Position numbers and translations under genes: made by a program
NCBI RefSeq assembly: GCF_016026235.1
Contig: NZ_CP065613.1
Direction: 5' to 3' (one strand)
From: Escherichia coli
GTDB taxonomy: Bacteria > Pseudomonadota > Gammaproteobacteria > Enterobacterales > Enterobacteriaceae
DNA: 64,000 bases
The notes under the pieces: generated by a model
What the model was told of the DNA's origin: nothing
What the model saw: the letters and a program-made list of their open reading frames with translations, nothing else
The model's database searches: none
Shown here: positions 1-54,634 of the stretch, piece by piece
Layout: each line of letters begins with the position of its first letter
Numbering within the stretch: the first letter of the stretch is position 1

Positions 1-1013
1 ACTTTGTCGTTCTCCATCACTTTCATAGAACGGAACTTCCACACTTTGATCGGCTTGCCATCCATGCCGTAGCGAGTCTGGCGGAAAATAACCGGCCCCG
101 GTGAGCTCAGTTTCACCGCCAGCGCAATGCAGCACAGCACCAGGGAGATCAGCAGCAGGATAAGCGTCGCCAGCACAATGTCTTCTGCACGTTTTATCAG
201 GCGGTTAACCCCGGAAAGCGGCGTGTCATACAGCGGCACCACCGGTACGCCATTCATCTCTTCGAGGCGTGAATGGAGAATGTTGAAGGTAAAGACATCG
301 GGGATCAGCAGCACCGAACAGGTGGTGTCCGCCAGTTGATGGACCAGTTTTTTCACTCGCGCGCCGTCGCACATCTGCATCGCGATATAGACGTTATGAA
401 TCTTGCCCGCTTTCGCATCCTCGACCAGTTGTTGCAGATTGCCCGCCCAGTCGTTAGAAACGCCACCCGGTTTCAGGTCGTGGTAAACGCCCACCACTTC
501 AAACCCTAACCACGGCTGATTACGGAAGCTCTCCATCAGCATTTGTCCGGCGGCTAAATCCCCCGCCACCGCGACCATGCGCTTGTTATAGCCATGATTA
601 CGCAGCCAGCCCGCCCCAATGCGAATACACGAACGGCAAACCACCAGTCCGATGCTGGTCAGCCCATACCACGCCAGCCAGATTTTCAGTTGCGTGTCGA
701 AATCATTGTTGAACGCCGCCAGTCCGGCGCTGAAAATCACGCTTATGGTCCAGTTTTGTAGCAACAGGGCAAATTCTGTCGCTGCCCGAACACCGCGCCA
801 TGAGCGATAAAAGTCGGTGATGCCGCCCAGCATCTGGAACACCACCAGCGTAATCAGCGCCACCAACAGGTGCATGTAGAGGAATGACAGTCCGCTCACT
901 TCGCAAACCAGCCATAGTCCGGCAAACATGATGGTGATATCTGAAAAGCGTTGCACCATAGAGATTAACGATGCATTGGTTTTCGCTCGCTCGCGCTTTT
1001 TTAGATTTGTCAT
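1..1013 (-). CDS. wcaJ: Undecaprenyl-phosphate glucose phosphotransferase WcaJ, N-terminal part (C-terminus lies beyond the window start)
   Basis: Minus-strand ATG at 1011-1013; manual translation gives MTNLKKRERAKTNASLISMVQRF... followed by hydrophobic TM segments. Not in the ORF track because it has no in-window stop. Lies immediately downstream of cpsG, as in the K-12 wca operon. Confidence 0.8.
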   Translation of the reverse strand, partial: MTNLKKRERAKTNASLISMVQRFSDITIMFAGLWLVCEVSGLSFLYMHLLVALITLVVFQMLGGITDFYRSWRGVRAATEFALLLQNWTISVIFSAGLAAFNNDFDTQLKIWLAWYGLTSIGLVVCRSCIRIGAGWLRNHGYNKRMVAVAGDLAAGQMLMESFRNQPWLGFEVVGVYHDLKPGGVSNDWAGNLQQLVEDAKAGKIHNVYIAMQMCDGARVKKLVHQLADTTCSVLLIPDVFTFNILHSRLEEMNGVPVVPLYDTPLSGVNRLIKRAEDIVLATLILLLISLVLCCIALAVKLSSPGPVIFRQTRYGMDGKPIKVWKFRSMKVMENDK

Positions 1014-32278: not shown

Positions 32279-32492
32279 CGTTTCAGCGTCCCGCTGAAAT
32301 CATCGGCTTACCTCCTTTCGCCCTGAATGCAGTCTATCGCTAACGCGTGAATAAAATAGTTTCCTCTGTGATTATTGCGTAACGACTCGCAAAGAATATT
32401 TGCTGGCAGGATCGCAGACTACAAAGCCTACGGATTGACAATCTTATCGTGAAGGCATACTTTCAGGAGTGAGGGTAGAGCGGGGTTTCCCC

Positions 32493-33786
32493 CTGAGGAA
32501 TCCCCAGAAAACAAGACAGGCATAGTGAGATGTGATCTAATTGATTGTGCTAACAATTTCAAGGAGATCACCACTATGCCTGCACGTTCATTATGCCAAA
32601 ATTTCCTTAACAACATACTGGCCCCTTTGCATCTTTACCGTCAAAAATCACTGATTGACGCAACTAATGCTGTAATAAATGGCGCTTCCCTCACACTTAC
32701 CAGTATCGGGCGTCATTTAACCGGTACGGCATCAGTTAAAAACAAAATAAAGCGGGTGGATCGACTGTTGGGGAATCGACATTTGCAAAATGAGGTTTCC
32801 ACCATTTTTCAGCGAATTACCCAAAAGATTACGCGGGGAATGTCTCGTGTTGTGATACTCATTGACTGGAGTGCTTATCATGCCTCTCGTTTTCAGCTTT
32901 TGCGGGCAAGCCTGGCATGTGACGGGCGTTCTTTACCGTTGATGAGTTGTGTCGTTCCATCATCACAGACAGCGAATGCAGATGTACATGAGCGTTTTCT
33001 GGAATCGCTTGCTGAGTGCTTTTCCCCCGGGACTGATGTCATTGTTATTACAGATGCCGGTTTTCAGGGGCGATGGTTCCAACAGCTCCGCTCCCGTGGC
33101 TGGACCTATATTTGCCGGGTACTGGGCAATCATTATTACAATGTTGGTAATGGCTGGGAAAAGGTGTCGGACTCAGGCACAAAAGCATCAACGACAGCAA
33201 TTTATTTAGGTGAAGGCCTGCTGGGTCGAGATAAAAATGCACAACATGAAGGGCATTTTTATCTTTATAAAAGTAAGCCTAAAGGTCGTAGATTTAAACG
33301 CTCGAAGGAAAGAGCAACCAGACCATCGGTGACGGCTAAAGCTCGTACTGCCGGGAAATCACCATGGTTTATTTTCACAAACAGTACTGAGTTCTCGCCA
33401 AAACAGGTAATGAAATTATACAGCCGTAGAATGCAAATTGAGCAAAATTTCAGGGATGAAAAAAATCCTCGCTGGGGATTTGGACTACGGTTTGGTGCCA
33501 GTCATTCATCCGGGCGGGTCACGGTATTGAGTCTGATCGCAACATTAGCCAGTATCATTATGTGGTTAAGCGGTTTCAGTCTGGAAAACAAAGGGATACA
33601 TCATAAATATCAGGCAAATACAGTGAAGCACAGGCGAGTCATCTCGTTATTAAAACTGGCGGAGAATGTGATTCGACATTCTCCACTCATACTAAACACA
33701 CTGTCACTTGACGCAGGGCTGAAAGTTCTACAGCAACGGTATACCAATATGATAATGGTTTACTAAATTTTCTGGGGATCCCTCAG
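32493..33786 (+). mobile_element. IS10-like insertion sequence (IS4 family), copy 1, 1294 bp
   Basis: Imperfect terminal inverted repeats CTGAGGAATCCCCAGAAAAC / CTGAGGGATCCCCAGAAAAT; flanking direct repeat GGGTTTCCCC (32483-32492 and 33787-33796; 10-12 bp depending on end assignment); encodes an IS10-like DDE transposase. Confidence 0.9.
32525..33766 (+). CDS. IS4-family (IS10-like) DDE transposase
   Basis: 413 aa; recognisable similarity to the IS10 transposase (KRVDRLLGNRHL, YSRRMQIEQNFRDEKN, HKYQANTVKHR); alternative start at MPARSL (32576). Confidence 0.9.
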   Translation: MRCDLIDCANNFKEITTMPARSLCQNFLNNILAPLHLYRQKSLIDATNAVINGASLTLTSIGRHLTGTASVKNKIKRVDRLLGNRHLQNEVSTIFQRITQKITRGMSRVVILIDWSAYHASRFQLLRASLACDGRSLPLMSCVVPSSQTANADVHERFLESLAECFSPGTDVIVITDAGFQGRWFQQLRSRGWTYICRVLGNHYYNVGNGWEKVSDSGTKASTTAIYLGEGLLGRDKNAQHEGHFYLYKSKPKGRRFKRSKERATRPSVTAKARTAGKSPWFIFTNSTEFSPKQVMKLYSRRMQIEQNFRDEKNPRWGFGLRFGASHSSGRVTVLSLIATLASIIMWLSGFSLENKGIHHKYQANTVKHRRVISLLKLAENVIRHSPLILNTLSLDAGLKVLQQRYTNMIMVY

Positions 33787-33912: not shown

Positions 33913-34144
33913 TTTCAGCGTCCCGCTGAAATCGGCGGCTTACCTCCTTTCGCCATGCAAGCAGTCTATCGCTAACGCGTAGATAAAATAGTTTCCTGTG
34001 TTATTACTGGATGCGTGCTCGCAAATGTGCCCGTCATTCAGACGATTCCCGACAGTGTTTCATAATTCCTCCATTTTTCTCCCTTATTGGCTGGCTACAC
34101 TAGTATCATTCCGCGAAACGTTTCAGGAAGAGAAACTCTTAACG

Positions 34145-45281: not shown

Positions 45282-46707
45282 TAATGCCAGTCAGTTAAGC
45301 AACTGACTGGCTCTTTTTCGGGGCTGTGGGGTATTTCCAGGGCCTCTCCTTTACCACTCTCGGGAAGGCCCTTCCCCTTCTCGTCGGTAATTTCACAAGT
45401 TGTCCCATACTTGCAAGATCGCGCATCAGCTCCGGTATACGTCCCGGTGAAGCGCCCTGCAATGTCATCAGCATTCTCATCACCATTCCGCATGATTCTG
45501 AGAAACTCAGTTGATTCGGCCAGTAACCTTTCAGATGTTCCGCCATTTTAATCATCTGATATCTCACCAGATTATAAGCCAGTAAGACACCCCACAGCTC
45601 TTGCTCCACAAGCTCCGGCTTTTTACTTCTCAGCGTCAGCCTGCTCAGTTGCATCGTCTGTTTTATCTCCCTGTATCCCAGTTCGATTTCCCAGCGATGA
45701 CTGTACAGATCCGCCATTTCTCCTCCGGGGAAGCGCATGGCGTCCGTCATCGACGTCAGCAGATGGCAGACTTTTCCTTTGCGCGTCACGGTCAGCAGGC
45801 GGGCTGTCACTTCATTTCCCAGTCCCGGCCACTTTTTTCGTGCCTGCGGGCTGGTTTTCAGCTTCACCAGATGATCGCCTTTACCCAGTTTTCTGAGCTC
45901 TTCATATTGCGCTCCCTTTCTGAGAGGTATCATCCAGTGGCGGTGTTCTCCCGCCAGGCTCCAGGCATTTAACAGTCCCAGTGAGTAATAACCTTTATCC
46001 ATTAACGTCAGAGTGTTATCGCCGGTTTGTTCTATAAGTTGCTCAGCAAGCTCATTTTCGCTGTTCTTCATCGTGCCGAAGGCTGCAGCCGTCAGCAGAT
46101 GGCTGGTCAGTTCCATCTGGCAGACCATTTTGACCTGCGGGTAGAGCGCCGGGTTCCCGGCATGTGTCTGGCGGGGGAAGGCTGCATCGTTCTCTGGTGT
46201 ATCCGGTGTGCGCCAGAACACACCATCGATGGCCAGCAGGGTCAGGCCGCACCAGTGCGGATGCGGCGTGGCGTTATGCCAGAGCTGCGCTGTTTTCGTG
46301 AACACGCGGCGGACAGCCTCACTTCCCAGGCGCTGGCGGGCCTGAATAACGGCACTGGGGGCAACGAAGGGGCGATTGCCCGGCAGCATGATGTCCAGGC
46401 GATTCACAATCTGGTGAAGAGGTTCTTTACGCTCAAGCGCCATGCCAACAATACACCAGACCATCATTTCGAGGGGAAGACGGCGCTTGCGTAGCGTTAC
46501 AGTACCTGATTCGGCAAGGCAACGAGAGATGAGTTCGGGGTCGAGGTAATCCCCCAGAGAAGTCAGTGGGTTACGCAGAGAATCGTAACGGGATACCAGA
46601 TCAAGAGCCTGTCCAATGTGCATAAAAAAATCCGGAAACAAGTGAGCGTTTCCGGATTCTTACACAGCCACTGGATCGGTCAACTGATCCTTAACTGATC
46701 GGCATTA
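45282..46707 (-). mobile_element. IS4 insertion sequence, 1426 bp
   Basis: 18-bp imperfect terminal inverted repeats TAATGCCAGTCAGTTAAG / TAATGCCGATCAGTTAAG; 12-bp target-site duplication CACCTTTAGATG at 45270-45281 and 46708-46719; length matches IS4. Confidence 0.93.
45295..46641 (-). CDS. insG: IS4 DDE transposase
   Basis: 448-aa ORF (likely start at [13 protein letters not shown]); DDE motifs [30 protein letters not shown]. Confidence 0.92.
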
Positions 46708-47088: not shown

Positions 47089-47240
47089 TTACGATGCCGG
47101 GCGTGGGTTGTTGGCGTCCGGCTTTATATCCAAATAACGCTTAGTTATTAATAATTAAGAGTAACCGCCGCCATTAAAATAGTGGGCACTGACGAGCACT
47201 CGTTGTGCTTTCTTTGTTTACCATCCCATACTTATCCTCC

Positions 47241-47252
47241 TGAACATGTTCA
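47241..47252. promoter_or_regulatory. Perfect 12-bp palindrome TGAACATGTTCA, candidate operator upstream of parDE
   Basis: Palindrome sits about 90 bp upstream of the parD start, within a likely promoter region. Confidence 0.35.
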
Positions 47253-47341
47253 TGTGCCAAAATATCTTCTAATACTTTCGTGACGCTATCCGGTTTATGA
47301 CATACACTGATGTAAGATTTTTACTTACAGGCGGGCGTAAA

Positions 47342-47593
47342 ATGGCCAGAACGATGACGGTTGATCTCGGCGATGAGTTGCGTGAATTTATCGAGTCCTT
47401 AATTGAATCCGGCGACTATCGCACCCAAAGCGAAGTGATCCGTGAGTCACTGCGATTACTTCGAGAAAAGCAAGCAGAGTCTCGCCTGCAAGCGTTACGT
47501 GACATGCTCGCAGAAGGGTTGAGTAGTGGTGAAGCTCAGCCGTGGGAAAAGGACGCGTTCTTACGGAAGGTGAAAGCAGGGATAAGGAAATAA
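47342..47593 (+). CDS. parD: ParD-family antitoxin (ribbon-helix-helix)
   Basis: ORF track 47297..47593; likely start at MARTMTV; resembles ParD/COG3609 antitoxins (TQSEVIRESLRLLREKQ); immediately upstream of a ParE-like ORF. Confidence 0.8.
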   Translation: MARTMTVDLGDELREFIESLIESGDYRTQSEVIRESLRLLREKQAESRLQALRDMLAEGLSSGEAQPWEKDAFLRKVKAGIRK

Positions 47594-47594
47594 T

Positions 47595-47891
47595 GTGCGT
47601 ATTATTAAACTCATGCCAAAAGCCAATGAGGATTTAGAAGGCATCTGGTATTACAGCTATCACCATTTCGGCGAACCACAAGCCGACAGATATGTGGAAC
47701 ATCTTTCAGACGTTCTCCAGATTCTGAGTAACAATAATATAGGTACGCCCAGACCTGAATTAGGCGAAGGTATTTTTGTTCTTCCTTTTGAACGCCACGT
47801 CATTTATTTCCTGCAATCACCAGGGGAAATTATCGTCATTCGTATCCTTAACCAAAACCAGAACGCCACCAGACATTTACACTGGAGCTAA
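47595..47891 (+). CDS. parE: ParE-family toxin (RelE/ParE superfamily)
   Basis: 98 aa; GTG start 1 nt after the parD stop, preceded by SD AAGGA; N-terminal EDLEGIWYYS and C-terminal IIVIRILNQNQNATRHL resemble ParE toxins. Confidence 0.8.
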   Translation: MRIIKLMPKANEDLEGIWYYSYHHFGEPQADRYVEHLSDVLQILSNNNIGTPRPELGEGIFVLPFERHVIYFLQSPGEIIVIRILNQNQNATRHLHWS

Positions 47892-47993
47892 ACCCGCCGA
47901 TTGCGCTACAATGCCCGCCCTTAAAGTGGGGGCACTCCCCTAACCGCTTCATCAGGTGAAGCGGATCTGACCTGTCATCAGAACGAGAGAATT

Positions 47994-49355
47994 ATGTTTA
48001 AACCGGAACTCCTTTCCCCGGCGGGAACGCTGAAAAATATGCGTTACGCTTTCGCTTATGGCGCAGATGCTGTTTATGCGGGCCAGCCGCGTTATTCCCT
48101 GCGTGTGCGCAACAACGAATTCAACCACGAAAATCTTCAGCTCGGCATCAATGAAGCCCACGCGCTGGGGAAAAAGTTTTATGTCGTGGTCAACATTGCA
48201 CCGCACAACGCCAAGCTGAAAACCTTTATCCGTGACCTGAAACCGGTGGTGGAAATGGGGCCGGATGCGCTGATTATGTCCGATCCAGGGCTGATTATGC
48301 TGGTGCGTGAGCACTTCCCTGAAATGCCGATCCACCTTTCGGTGCAGGCTAACGCCGTGAACTGGGCGACGGTGAAATTCTGGCAGCAAATGGGCCTGAC
48401 CCGCGTGATCCTCTCTCGCGAGCTGTCGCTGGAAGAGATTGAAGAGATCCGCAATCAGGTGCCGGATATGGAGATCGAGATCTTCGTTCACGGCGCGCTG
48501 TGCATGGCCTACTCCGGTCGCTGCCTGCTCTCTGGCTATATCAACAAGCGCGACCCGAACCAGGGCACCTGCACCAACGCCTGCCGCTGGGAGTACAACG
48601 TCCAGGAAGGGAAAGAAGATGATGTTGGCAACATCGTACACAAGTACGAGCCGATTCCGGTGCAAAATGTTGAGCCGACGCTGGGTATCGGCGCACCAAC
48701 CGACAAAGTGTTTATGATCGAAGAGGCCCAGCGTCCGGGCGAGTATATGACCGCGTTTGAAGATGAGCACGGCACTTACATCATGAACTCGAAAGATCTG
48801 CGCGCCATCGCCCATGTAGAACGCCTGACCAAAATGGGCGTGCATTCGCTGAAAATCGAAGGTCGTACCAAATCTTTCTACTATTGTGCACGCACCGCAC
48901 AGGTTTACCGCAAAGCTATCGATGACGCCGCTGCGGGAAAACCGTTCGATACCAGCCTGCTGGAAACTCTGGAAGGTCTGGCGCATCGTGGCTATACCGA
49001 AGGTTTCCTGCGTCGTCATACTCACGACGATTATCAGAACTACGAATACGGTTATTCAGTTTCTGACCGCCAGCAGTTTGTTGGTGAGTTTACCGGTGAG
49101 CGCAAGGGGGACCTCGCGGCGGTAGCGGTGAAAAATAAATTCTCCGTTGGCGACAGCCTTGAGCTGATGACGCCGCAAGGCAACATTAATTTTACCCTTG
49201 AGCACATGGAAAACGCCAAAGGCGAAGCTATGCCGATAGCACCAGGCGATGGTTATACTGTGTGGCTCCCGGTCCCGCAGGATCTTGAGCTCAATTACGC
49301 GCTGCTGATGCGTAATTTCTCCGGGGAAACCACGCGTAATCCCCACGGTAAGTGA
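47994..49355 (+). CDS. trhP: Peptidase U32-family protein YegQ/TrhP (tRNA hydroxylation)
   Basis: 453 aa; MFKPELLSPAGTLKNMRYAFAYGADAVY...; U32 family, with a Cys-rich segment. Confidence 0.9.
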   Translation: MFKPELLSPAGTLKNMRYAFAYGADAVYAGQPRYSLRVRNNEFNHENLQLGINEAHALGKKFYVVVNIAPHNAKLKTFIRDLKPVVEMGPDALIMSDPGLIMLVREHFPEMPIHLSVQANAVNWATVKFWQQMGLTRVILSRELSLEEIEEIRNQVPDMEIEIFVHGALCMAYSGRCLLSGYINKRDPNQGTCTNACRWEYNVQEGKEDDVGNIVHKYEPIPVQNVEPTLGIGAPTDKVFMIEEAQRPGEYMTAFEDEHGTYIMNSKDLRAIAHVERLTKMGVHSLKIEGRTKSFYYCARTAQVYRKAIDDAAAGKPFDTSLLETLEGLAHRGYTEGFLRRHTHDDYQNYEYGYSVSDRQQFVGEFTGERKGDLAAVAVKNKFSVGDSLELMTPQGNINFTLEHMENAKGEAMPIAPGDGYTVWLPVPQDLELNYALLMRNFSGETTRNPHGK

Positions 49356-49407: not shown

Positions 49408-49439
49408 CAGCTGCATTTATTAAGGTTATCATCCGTTTC

Positions 49440-49526
49440 GCTGAAAAACATAACCCATAAAATGCTAGCTGTACCAGGAACCACCTCCTTAGCCTGTGTA
49501 ATCTCCCTTACACGGGCTTATTTTTT
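49440..49526 (+). ncRNA. cyaR: CyaR (RyeE) sRNA
   Basis: Sequence GCTGAAAAACATAACCCATAAAATGCTAGCTGTACCAGGAACCACCTCCTTAGCCTGTGTAATCTCCCTTACACGGGCTTATTTTTT matches CyaR as recalled; terminal hairpin plus T6. Confidence 0.9.
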
Positions 49527-53340: not shown

Positions 53341-54634
53341 CTGAGGAATCCCCAGAAAACAAGACAGGCATAGTGAGATGTGATCTAATTGATTGTGCTA
53401 ACAATTTCAAGGAGATCACCACTATGCCTGCACGTTCATTATGCCAAAATTTCCTTAACAATATACTGGCCCCTTTGCATCTTTACCGTCAAAAATCACT
53501 GATTGACGCAACTAATGCTGTAATAAATGGCGCTTCCCTCACACTTACCAGTATCGGGCGTCATTTAACCGGTACGGCATCAGTTAAAAACAAAATAAAG
53601 CGGGTGGATCGACTGTTGGGGAATCGACATTTGCAAAATGAGGTTTCCACCATTTTTCAGCGAATTACCCAAAAGATTACGCGGGGAATGTCTCGTGTTG
53701 TGATACTCATTGACTGGAGTGCTTATCATGCCTCTCGTTTTCAGCTTTTGCGGGCAAGCCTGGCATGTGACGGGCGTTCTTTACCGTTGATGAGTTGTGT
53801 CGTTCCATCATCACAGACAGCGAATGCAGATGTACATGAGCGTTTTCTGGAATCGCTTGCTGAGTGCTTTTCCCCCGGGACTGATGTCATTGTTATTACA
53901 GATGCCGGTTTTCAGGGGCGATGGTTCCAACAGCTCCGCTCCCGTGGCTGGACCTATATTTGCCGGGTACTGGGCAATCATTATTACAATGTTGGTAATG
54001 GCTGGGAAAAGGTGTCGGACTCAGGCACAAAAGCATCAACGACAGCAATTTATTTAGGTGAAGGCCTGCTGGGTCGAGATAAAAATGCACAACATGAAGG
54101 GCATTTTTATCTTTATAAAAGTAAGCCTAAAGGTCGTAGATTTAAACGCTCGAAGGAAAGAGCAACCAGACCATCGGTGACGGCTAAAGCTCGTACTGCC
54201 GGGAAATCACCATGGTTTATTTTCACAAACAGTACTGAGTTCTCGCCAAAACAGGTAATGAAATTATACAGCCGTAGAATGCAAATTGAGCAAAATTTCA
54301 GGGATGAAAAAAATCCTCGCTGGGGATTTGGACTACGGTTTGGTGCCAGTCATTCATCCGGGCGGGTCACGGTATTGAGTCTGATCGCAACATTAGCCAG
54401 TATCATTATGTGGTTAAGCGGTTTCAGCCTGGAAAACAAAGGGATACATCATAAATATCAGGCAAATACAGTGAAGCACAGGCGAGTCATCTCGTTATTA
54501 AAACTGGCGGAGAATGTGATTCGACATTCTCCACTCATACTAAACACACTGTCACTTGACGCAGGGCTGAAAGTTCTACAGCAACGGTATACCAATATGA
54601 TAATGGTTTACTAAATTTTCTGGGGATCCCTCAG
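53341..54634 (+). mobile_element. IS10-like insertion sequence (IS4 family), copy 2, 1294 bp
   Basis: Same element as copy 1, with at least two single-base differences (offsets 121 and 1087); flanking direct repeat GGATAAACTC (53331-53340 and 54635-54644). Confidence 0.9.
53373..54614 (+). CDS. IS4-family (IS10-like) DDE transposase
   Basis: 413 aa, protein identical to the copy-1 transposase. Confidence 0.9.
   Translation: MRCDLIDCANNFKEITTMPARSLCQNFLNNILAPLHLYRQKSLIDATNAVINGASLTLTSIGRHLTGTASVKNKIKRVDRLLGNRHLQNEVSTIFQRITQKITRGMSRVVILIDWSAYHASRFQLLRASLACDGRSLPLMSCVVPSSQTANADVHERFLESLAECFSPGTDVIVITDAGFQGRWFQQLRSRGWTYICRVLGNHYYNVGNGWEKVSDSGTKASTTAIYLGEGLLGRDKNAQHEGHFYLYKSKPKGRRFKRSKERATRPSVTAKARTAGKSPWFIFTNSTEFSPKQVMKLYSRRMQIEQNFRDEKNPRWGFGLRFGASHSSGRVTVLSLIATLASIIMWLSGFSLENKGIHHKYQANTVKHRRVISLLKLAENVIRHSPLILNTLSLDAGLKVLQQRYTNMIMVY

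Follow-up and report, generated by a model that had tools for sequence, protein, structure and literature searches.

Between the toxin gene parE and yegQ in Escherichia coli lies a perfect 8-bp hairpin, which we analyzed in a 64,000-nucleotide (nt) stretch of contig NZ_CP065613.1 (hereafter, the window) and in orthologous loci from other bacteria. The gene yegQ, also named trhP, encodes TrhP, the prephenate-dependent transfer RNA (tRNA) U34 hydroxylase (PMC6599085). We find, with high confidence, that the hairpin, which we call P2, has been selected for pairing and not for sequence, that it acts in the sense-strand RNA, and that it belongs to the backbone and not to the neighboring parDE genes. 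In the reading that we favor, P2 is one helix of a conserved ~75-nt 5′ leader RNA on trhP, which we classify as a previously undescribed, lineage-restricted messenger RNA (mRNA) leader of the autoregulatory type; taken together with the mechanism proposed below, we hold this reading with somewhat less than even confidence. The original prediction had offered a regulatory element for yegQ among other roles for the hairpin, and our analysis supports this suggestion in kind, with the hairpin as a covarying helix of the putative yegQ/trhP leader.

Conservation and pairing of the trhP leader

The inverted repeat consists of the arms CCGCTTCA (47944-47951) and TGAAGCGG (47957-47964) around a 5-nt spacer, TCAGG (47952-47956). 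As originally described, the 8-bp match is perfect, 52 nt separate it from the parE stop codon (47889-47891), and no T-tract follows; the bases directly 3′ of it are ATCTGACC, and the trhP ATG (47994) begins after another 29 nt. RNAfold extends the stem to 9 bp with a 3-nt loop (-12.1 kcal/mol; pair probabilities 0.97-1.0). We reject the notion that the hairpin is an unusual pattern per se: perfect 8-bp stems with 3-8-nt loops occur 25 times in the window (~17 distinct hairpins) versus 7.2 +/- 2.9 times in dinucleotide shuffles, and the fold stability of the intergenic region is ordinary relative to shuffles (z = -1.29). The significance of the hairpin comes instead from its conservation and covariation.

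We fetched 80 orthologous trhP loci, one per species, by way of the protein, a route that introduces no bias toward the hairpin. We used a covariance model to align 77 distinct sequences, which represent six Enterobacterales families. All eight P2 pairs change on both sides, 92.5% of the P2 cells form a standard pair, and there are 82 compensatory cells versus 20.7 +/- 3.4 in shuffles, none of which (0/500) attains the values observed. In a control with the 3′ partner shifted by 1-3 columns, 29-56% of cells are paired. This alignment is fitted to the structure and leans toward pairing, and an unfitted MAFFT alignment of 72 distinct sequences agrees with it: all eight P2 pairs change on both sides in this alignment also, and RNAalifold run on it independently predicts both P2 and a second hairpin, P3. 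For instance, the paired arms of P2 are CCGCUUCA/UGAAGCGG, CCGCCUCA/UGAGGCGG, or UCGCCGCA/UGCGGCGA in some sequences and CCGUCCCA/UGGGACGG, UCACCACA/UGUGGUGA, or CCGUUUCA/UGAAACGG in others. Additionally, P2 contains G.U pairs in the sense orientation, as in the GAAGTGG variant of E. coli TB06051. Because the compensatory changes retain pairing, we conclude that P2 is a selected RNA helix; the preservation of base pairs by compensatory substitutions across species is the mark of a structured cis-regulatory RNA. That the P2 sequence itself is free to change argues against a sequence-specific DNA-binding site.

The leader extends beyond the Enterobacteriaceae. A covariance model of P2, P3 and the Shine-Dalgarno region, built from Enterobacteriaceae only, detects it at expectation values (E) between 2e-13 and 8e-5 in Pantoea, Pectobacterium, Sodalis, Yersinia, Limnobaculum, Providencia and Morganella; the Photorhabdus match is weaker (E = 0.23). 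These matches fall in the Erwiniaceae, Pectobacteriaceae, Yersiniaceae, Morganellaceae and Budviciaceae, and the P2 sequence differs from one family to the next. The eight representatives of other Enterobacterales families that keep P3 all have a helix of unrelated sequence at the P2 position.

In minimum free energy (MFE) predictions, the leader folds as three hairpins, P1, P2 and P3, followed by ACGAGAGAAUU and the AUG (Table 1). The P1 position holds a hairpin in nearly every genus when sequences are folded one by one, with variant stems such as GAGGA/UCCUC, GUGG/CCAC and CAGGGG/CCCCUG; the covariation of P1 in the MAFFT alignment is only modest to weak, and indels interfere there. The linker between P2 and P3 is a single column, mostly A, in the 72 Enterobacteriaceae sequences (tRNA-Thr(UGU) also has A26), and 0-8 nt long in other families. 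P3 spans -28 to -12 relative to the start codon and is weak when folded alone (-2.6 kcal/mol; pair probability 0.6-0.7). Wherever a family keeps P3, a GAGA-type Shine-Dalgarno sequence lies 1-3 nt and the ATG 11-17 nt downstream of it. We also considered a leader peptide and rejected it, as the E. coli mini-open reading frame GTG-GGG-GCA-CTC-CCC-TAA is unconserved, with its stop codon lost in Klebsiella, for example. Two loci depart from the usual arrangement. In Cedecea sulfonylureivorans (locus L081, 1426..1503), a terminator-like hairpin takes the place of the promoter and P1, and P2 and P3 are retained. In Yersinia enterocolitica (locus L095, 471..503), TrhP has a 14-residue N-terminal extension and P3 lies 14 nt from this upstream ATG, which suggests that the extension is real and that the putative operator moved along with the start codon.

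A conserved promoter of the sigma-70 type is predicted ahead of trhP from the comparison of 79 distinct sequences. The -35 hexamer is TTTACT or TTTACC in 68 of these, the spacer to the -10 hexamer TACAAT is 17 bp in 72, and a GC-rich discriminator, (G/T)CCCGCCC, follows in 73. The conserved block of -35, 17-bp spacer, -10 and discriminator lies 31 bp upstream of P2, and the interval from TACAAT to the ATG is conserved throughout the Enterobacteriaceae. From this spacing, transcription is predicted to start at about 47919-47921. GC-rich discriminators are typical of promoters under growth-rate or stringent control, and, on these general grounds, a near-invariant discriminator across genera would fit a translation-apparatus gene controlled in this way.

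Resemblance of P3 to the tRNA-Thr(UGU) anticodon arm

Unlike P2, the stem of P3 is invariant in the 77 distinct sequences, and a core of CUGA-C-Y-U-G-W-N-N-UCAGA is retained across the six families. Its 5-bp stem and 7-nt loop have the geometry of an anticodon arm. TrhP hydroxylates U34 of six (m)cmo5U tRNAs, namely Ala1, Ser1, Pro3, Thr4, Leu3 and Val1 (PMC6599085). Using the tRNA genes of E. coli K-12, we compared positions 26-43 of 23 distinct tRNAs with the leader. The best match is thrU, which encodes tRNA-Thr(UGU): its sequence A-ACUGA-CUUGUAA-UCAGU and the leader sequence A-UCUGA-CCUGUCA-UCAGA are identical at 14 of 18 positions, and the 27:43 pair is flipped, and hence compensated, in P3 relative to thrU. 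The next best tRNAs are Lys(UUU) with 11/18 and Pro(UGG) with 10/18.

A number of searches bear on how specific this match is. When the arms of the six substrates were compared with both strands of the window, only 6 of 767,796 comparisons reached 14/18, and P3 alone reached this value among the 1,183 window hairpins with a 5-bp stem and a 7-nt loop. A degenerate motif derived from the leader, CTGACYTGNNNTCAG, occurs once in the window (at P3) and once in each trhP locus that keeps P3; elsewhere in the ~490 kb searched, it is found in the thrU anticodon arm only, with zero mismatches. Similarly, thrU is the sole match of the covariance model among ~35 tRNA genes.

The P3 loop always has the equivalents of C32, U34 and G35; at position 36 it has either U or A, and it is variable at positions 37 and 38. 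Outside the Enterobacteriaceae, the loop has U33 (CUUGUGA, CUUGAAC, CUUGAUA or CUUGACA) and is closer to a real anticodon loop. In these sequences, the equivalent of the anticodon is UGU or UGA, the anticodons of Thr4 and Ser1, both of which are (m)cmo5U tRNAs. The resemblance of P3 to the tRNA-Thr(UGU) arm is suggestive, not proven.

Two other accounts of the resemblance were considered. P3 could be the remnant of a tRNA gene or a phage attachment site, which we reject because the element keeps a fixed distance to the ATG across families; additionally, the similarity to thrU stops before the variable and T arms. Threonyl-tRNA synthetase is an unlikely ligand, as its identity base U36 is A in many lineages. 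As a separate observation, the K-12 aspS-yecD intergenic region, upstream of yecD-yecE-yecN-cmoA-cmoB (locus L107, ~693..710), contains AUCGGGCCUGAAAUCAGA, which matches the tRNA-Thr(UGU) arm at 12/18 positions and has 12 consecutive nt in common with a P3 variant; it forms no hairpin and is within chance expectation.

A candidate operator and other readings of the leader

In the thrS operator, threonyl-tRNA synthetase binds a mimic of the anticodon arm and competes with the ribosome. Substrate mimicry with shielding of the ribosome-binding site is established for E. coli thrS (PMC6524683). The trhP leader also has an anticodon-arm-like stem-loop directly upstream of the Shine-Dalgarno sequence, and the arm mimicked is that of tRNA-Thr in both cases. 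P3 therefore resembles the thrS system both in geometry, as a stem-loop similar to the anticodon arm of a substrate of the encoded enzyme, and, in position only, by its place next to the Shine-Dalgarno sequence. We tentatively propose that the trhP leader is a thrS-like operator in which TrhP binds the tRNA look-alike P3 and P2 supports it. The leader would be transcribed from the conserved promoter (TTTACY, 17 bp, TACAAT and the GC-rich discriminator). Free TrhP would bind P3 as it does a tRNA anticodon arm and block binding of the 30S subunit; with P3 in the landing zone of the ribosome, TrhP would repress its own translation, and the untranslated trhP mRNA would be exposed to Rho-dependent termination. 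P2 may act as a stacked helical extension of P3, like the D-stem on the anticodon stem, that aids both the formation of P3 and its recognition, a role that would explain why pairing is conserved in P2 while its sequence drifts. As in thrS, the outcome would be negative feedback, with the level of TrhP following the pool of unmodified tRNA. Exposure of untranslated mRNA to Rho fits a report that groups yegQ with genes raised >30-fold in a rho N340S mutant, in which the terminator was not located (PMC9160355). The transcription start, TrhP binding, translational repression, the link to Rho and the stacking role of P2 are all steps that we infer. Taken as a whole, self-control of TrhP through a decoy like the anticodon arm of Thr(UGU) or Ser(UGA), with P2 as a D-stem-like support, is possible but rather doubtful.

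Several observations weigh against this proposal. By our estimate, the probability of such a match arising by chance in an 80-nt leader is ~0.004-0.01, and the observation was made post hoc. TrhP prefers tRNA-Leu3 and tRNA-Pro3, and the modification of Thr4 is only ~50% TrhP-dependent (PMC6599085); P3 matches the preferred substrates at 10/18 (Pro3) and 8/18 (Leu3) positions. The six substrates differ in their anticodon stems, such that the invariant CUGA/UCAG of P3 is not obviously explained by recognition by the enzyme. Enterobacteriaceae P3 has C33 instead of the universal U33, as well as C37, and four families have a mismatch at the 27:43 pair. In Sodalis and Pantoea, P2 and P3 are 6-8 nt apart, a distance that weakens the analogy with the D-stem, and one Erwinia sp. 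(locus L105, ~440..503) has lost the 5′ half of P3, with only GUCAGA and the Shine-Dalgarno sequence left. The element is absent from three homologs at 63%, 46% and 43% identity, a small sample beyond the Enterobacterales. No comparable element was found upstream of trhO or of yecD-cmoA-cmoB, where the best match (12/18, non-hairpin) is within chance. Lastly, the literature searched contains no mapped yegQ transcription start, and yegQ is not among the data of the 3′-end-mapping supplement that we scanned.

The strongest alternative accepts the leader as a real, structured cis-acting RNA and holds that its ligand is not TrhP and that the likeness to tRNA-Thr is coincidental, which we consider possible while leaning against it. 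P1 and P2 could shield the 5′ region of the mRNA from decay dependent on RNase E or RppH, the hairpins could set translation efficiency or the access of Rho constitutively, or P3 could be bound by another trans-acting factor, for example a small RNA or some other protein that binds tRNA. Covariation proves pairing and not the identity of a ligand, and some of the points just listed can be read in favor of this alternative: the invariant P3 stem is unexplained by the varied substrates of TrhP, Thr4 is not the preferred substrate, and the tRNA likeness has a chance probability of ~1% and was noticed post hoc. The strong Rho sensitivity of yegQ also counts in its favor. However, plain stabilizing hairpins would not call for a 15-nt stem-loop that is invariant and keeps its distance from the Shine-Dalgarno sequence in six families, and the conserved loop positions, just C32, U34 and G35, are too few for pairing with a small RNA. 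Moreover, the tRNA that P3 matches is a substrate of just the enzyme whose gene follows the leader. In the literature searched for a link to small RNAs or Hfq, yegQ is mentioned only as the neighbor of cyaR.

A second alternative places the function in the DNA, where the inverted repeats (TCTGA-N7-TCAGA and possibly the P2 palindrome) would be bound by a dimeric transcription factor that blocks RNA polymerase once it has passed the trhP promoter. P3 does have invariant arms around a more variable center, a classic operator signature, and lies just downstream of the conserved promoter. Yet the sequence of P2 changes completely while its complementarity is kept, which a sequence-specific DNA-binding protein would not tolerate, and its G.U pairs are in the sense strand. 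In P3, conservation of the center is asymmetric (C, then T-G on the 5′ side only), and the outermost position of the arms is kept only on the 3′ side, with A.A, C.A or G.A in four families, leaving a true palindrome of 4 bp. The half-sites are thus not the symmetric, strand-independent ones of a palindromic operator, and we regard this alternative as improbable.

A metabolite riboswitch, for example for prephenate, with P2 in the expression platform, is very improbable. Prephenate is needed by TrhP (PMC6599085), and thiC, which is named together with yegQ in one study, is described there as carrying, in the region of its riboswitch, a Rho-dependent terminator of great strength (PMC9160355). 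The trhP leader, however, consists of three independent short hairpins and offers no multi-helix junction or conserved internal loops that could form a pocket; its conserved unpaired nucleotides are confined to the P3 loop and the Shine-Dalgarno region; no conserved, mutually exclusive pairing with the Shine-Dalgarno sequence was found that could serve as an alternative platform; and there is no Rfam match.

The putative operator can be compared with several known systems. Relative to thrS, competition with the 30S subunit and negative feedback are for trhP a proposal only, and three differences stand out: trhP encodes a tRNA-modification enzyme (a U34 hydroxylase of the peptidase U32 family) and not a synthetase; its leader has one mimic hairpin plus a generic helix, P2, where thrS has two anticodon-like domains for a dimer; and its loop tolerates UGU or UGA and either C or U at position 33. 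As in the leaders of autoregulated ribosomal-protein genes, the trhP 5′ untranslated region (UTR) is short, structured and restricted to a lineage (Enterobacterales), and combines covarying helices with an invariant hairpin overlapping the ribosome-binding region; the trhP leader differs in having no Rfam family and in that it would mimic the anticodon arm of a tRNA, not ribosomal RNA. With the Rho-terminated leaders of the thiC and thiM riboswitches (PMC9160355) it shares the strong Rho sensitivity of yegQ, and a translation-gating leader would likewise expose its mRNA to Rho, but it lacks the architecture of a ligand pocket. Finally, P2 looks like an intrinsic terminator in being a GC-rich, perfect intergenic hairpin after a stop codon. 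We reject this possibility, as the stem runs into ATCTGACC with no U-tract and a terminator scan gave no match at the hairpin, which lies inside the predicted trhP 5′ UTR and is conserved with trhP whatever lies upstream.

We found no earlier account of the leader. Rfam 15 has no family there: an 8-kb scan gave nothing at E <= 1, and the best match in a focused scan of the leader scored 12.8 bits versus a gathering score of 45. The full-text literature searched contains no description of a trhP/yegQ leader or of TrhP autoregulation, and no anticodon-arm mimic for a bacterial tRNA-modification enzyme; the mimicry described there is for synthetases. If the proposal is true, trhP would be the first bacterial gene for a tRNA-modification enzyme with a reported substrate-mimicry operator, as far as the literature searched goes, and the thrS paradigm of substrate mimicry would extend from synthetases to modification enzymes. 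U47973 of the mRNA might then itself be hydroxylated. The control of tRNA-modification enzyme levels in bacteria is little understood, and the literature searched is silent on the regulation of trhP. In any case, an RNA element that is absent from Rfam and supported by covariation is added in E. coli itself. Recognition of tRNA by TrhP is not known to have been reconstituted in vitro. The leader also offers a cheap handle, a 40-nt RNA instead of a full tRNA, with which to probe what TrhP recognizes in the anticodon arm.

The parDE cassette and neighboring features

The remaining reading, that the hairpin came with the parDE insertion as a junction scar or as a 3′ stabilizer or terminator of the parDE transcript, is practically discounted: in its favor is proximity only (52 nt after the parE stop codon, with no other terminator after parE), and against it, the cassette ends 41 bp upstream of the hairpin, which has no U-tract, is identical in genomes that lack parDE, and covaries across genera that lack the cassette. 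The original prediction had raised both the junction marker and the transcript stabilizer, and had named an alignment with the K-12 yegQ upstream region as the check; this alignment, now done, places the hairpin in the backbone. The sites aligned with the window were three empty ones (K-12-like, O157:H7 and H105) and a divergent occupied one; the hairpin and all sequence from GCGCTACAAT onward are common to every one of them. We searched 5,426 complete E. coli genomes with a 1.5-kb query that includes the site: 5,423 have a match, and the parDE part is covered in 1,843; the others match as two pieces, yegP and yegQ. The 103-nt stretch at 47903-48005, by comparison, is present at >=95% identity in 5,423 of the 5,426. 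Because of the empty-site alignment, the junction mapping and these genome counts, neither role can be upheld: the hairpin starts 41 bp into sequence that genomes without parDE also have, and it predates the cassette, being conserved in genera and families without parDE. Conservation across families also contradicts the idea that the empty sites are secondary deletions with cassette sequence left behind. Neither the sequence nor a terminator scan reveals a terminator after parE. The hairpin could still end up within parDE read-through transcripts.

The cassette is inserted within the core promoter of trhP in ~34% of E. coli genomes. It replaces 21 bp of the empty site, GCTTTACCAGAGCCCCCCACA, which comprise the -35 hexamer and most of the spacer. 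Genomes without parDE have TTTACC or TTTACT 17 bp upstream of the -10 hexamer; in the window, the best -35 candidate is TGGAGC, which matches at 3 of 6 positions. In these ~34% of genomes, trhP may be left with a crippled promoter or rely on read-through from parDE, and the cassette has perhaps placed a translation-fidelity factor under the control of a toxin-antitoxin promoter. If the proposed operator is real, the feedback loop in this third of E. coli would run on toxin-antitoxin read-through transcripts.

Table 1. Coordinates of the trhP leader, its promoter and the adjoining features in the window
Feature	Position	Strand	Basis or remark
yegP 3′ hairpin, terminator-like, GCCGGGCG...CGTCCGGC	47096..47122	+	Sequence; terminator-like scan match at 47110-47122; last backbone before the cassette
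parDE cassette, 780 bp	47123..47902	+	Empty-site alignment with exact junction mapping; left junction at 47122
parD	47342..47593	+	Pfam ParD_antitoxin
parE	47595..47891	+	Pfam ParE_toxin
-10 hexamer TACAAT (predicted)	47907..47912	+	Comparison of 79 distinct sequences
GC-rich discriminator GCCCGCCC	47913..47920	+	(G/T)CCCGCCC in 73/79 distinct sequences
P1, 5′-proximal hairpin with GGGG/CCCC core	47927..47942	+	Leader MFE
P2, the hairpin under study, 8-9 bp	47944..47964	+	Sequence variable, structure conserved
Linker A between P2 and P3, 1 nt	47965	+	Alignment column; at the position of tRNA residue 26
P3, UCUGA-CCUGUCA-UCAGA, 5-bp stem and 7-nt loop	47966..47982	+	U34-equivalent at 47973
Shine-Dalgarno-like GAGAG	47985..47989	+	2 nt after P3
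trhP (yegQ) coding sequence	47994..49355	+	Open reading frame; Pfam Peptidase_U32 and Peptidase_U32_C; RefSeq names

The genes around the leader are identified by Pfam as YegP (DUF1508), ParD_antitoxin, ParE_toxin and Peptidase_U32, in agreement with the RefSeq annotation of identical loci. Directly downstream of trhP, at 49438..49523 on the plus strand, is the small RNA CyaR (RyeE; Rfam RF00112, 100.7 bits). Just upstream of yegP, the window carries an open reading frame of 448 amino acids for an IS4-family transposase (45295..46641, minus strand; Pfam Nterm_IS4 and DDE_Tnp_1), with perfect inverted repeats near both of its ends (45287-45310 and 46632-46655). In the K-12-like, O157 and other loci, baeR is ~190 bp from yegP, with no insertion sequence element. 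Elsewhere in the window, identical perfect hairpins recur at 33661..33684 and 54509..54532, ~20.8 kb apart (GGAGAATG...CATTCTCC), and at 32281..32299 and 33913..33931, ~1.6 kb apart (TTTCAGCG-TCC-CGCTGAAA), which indicates repeated DNA segments in the window.

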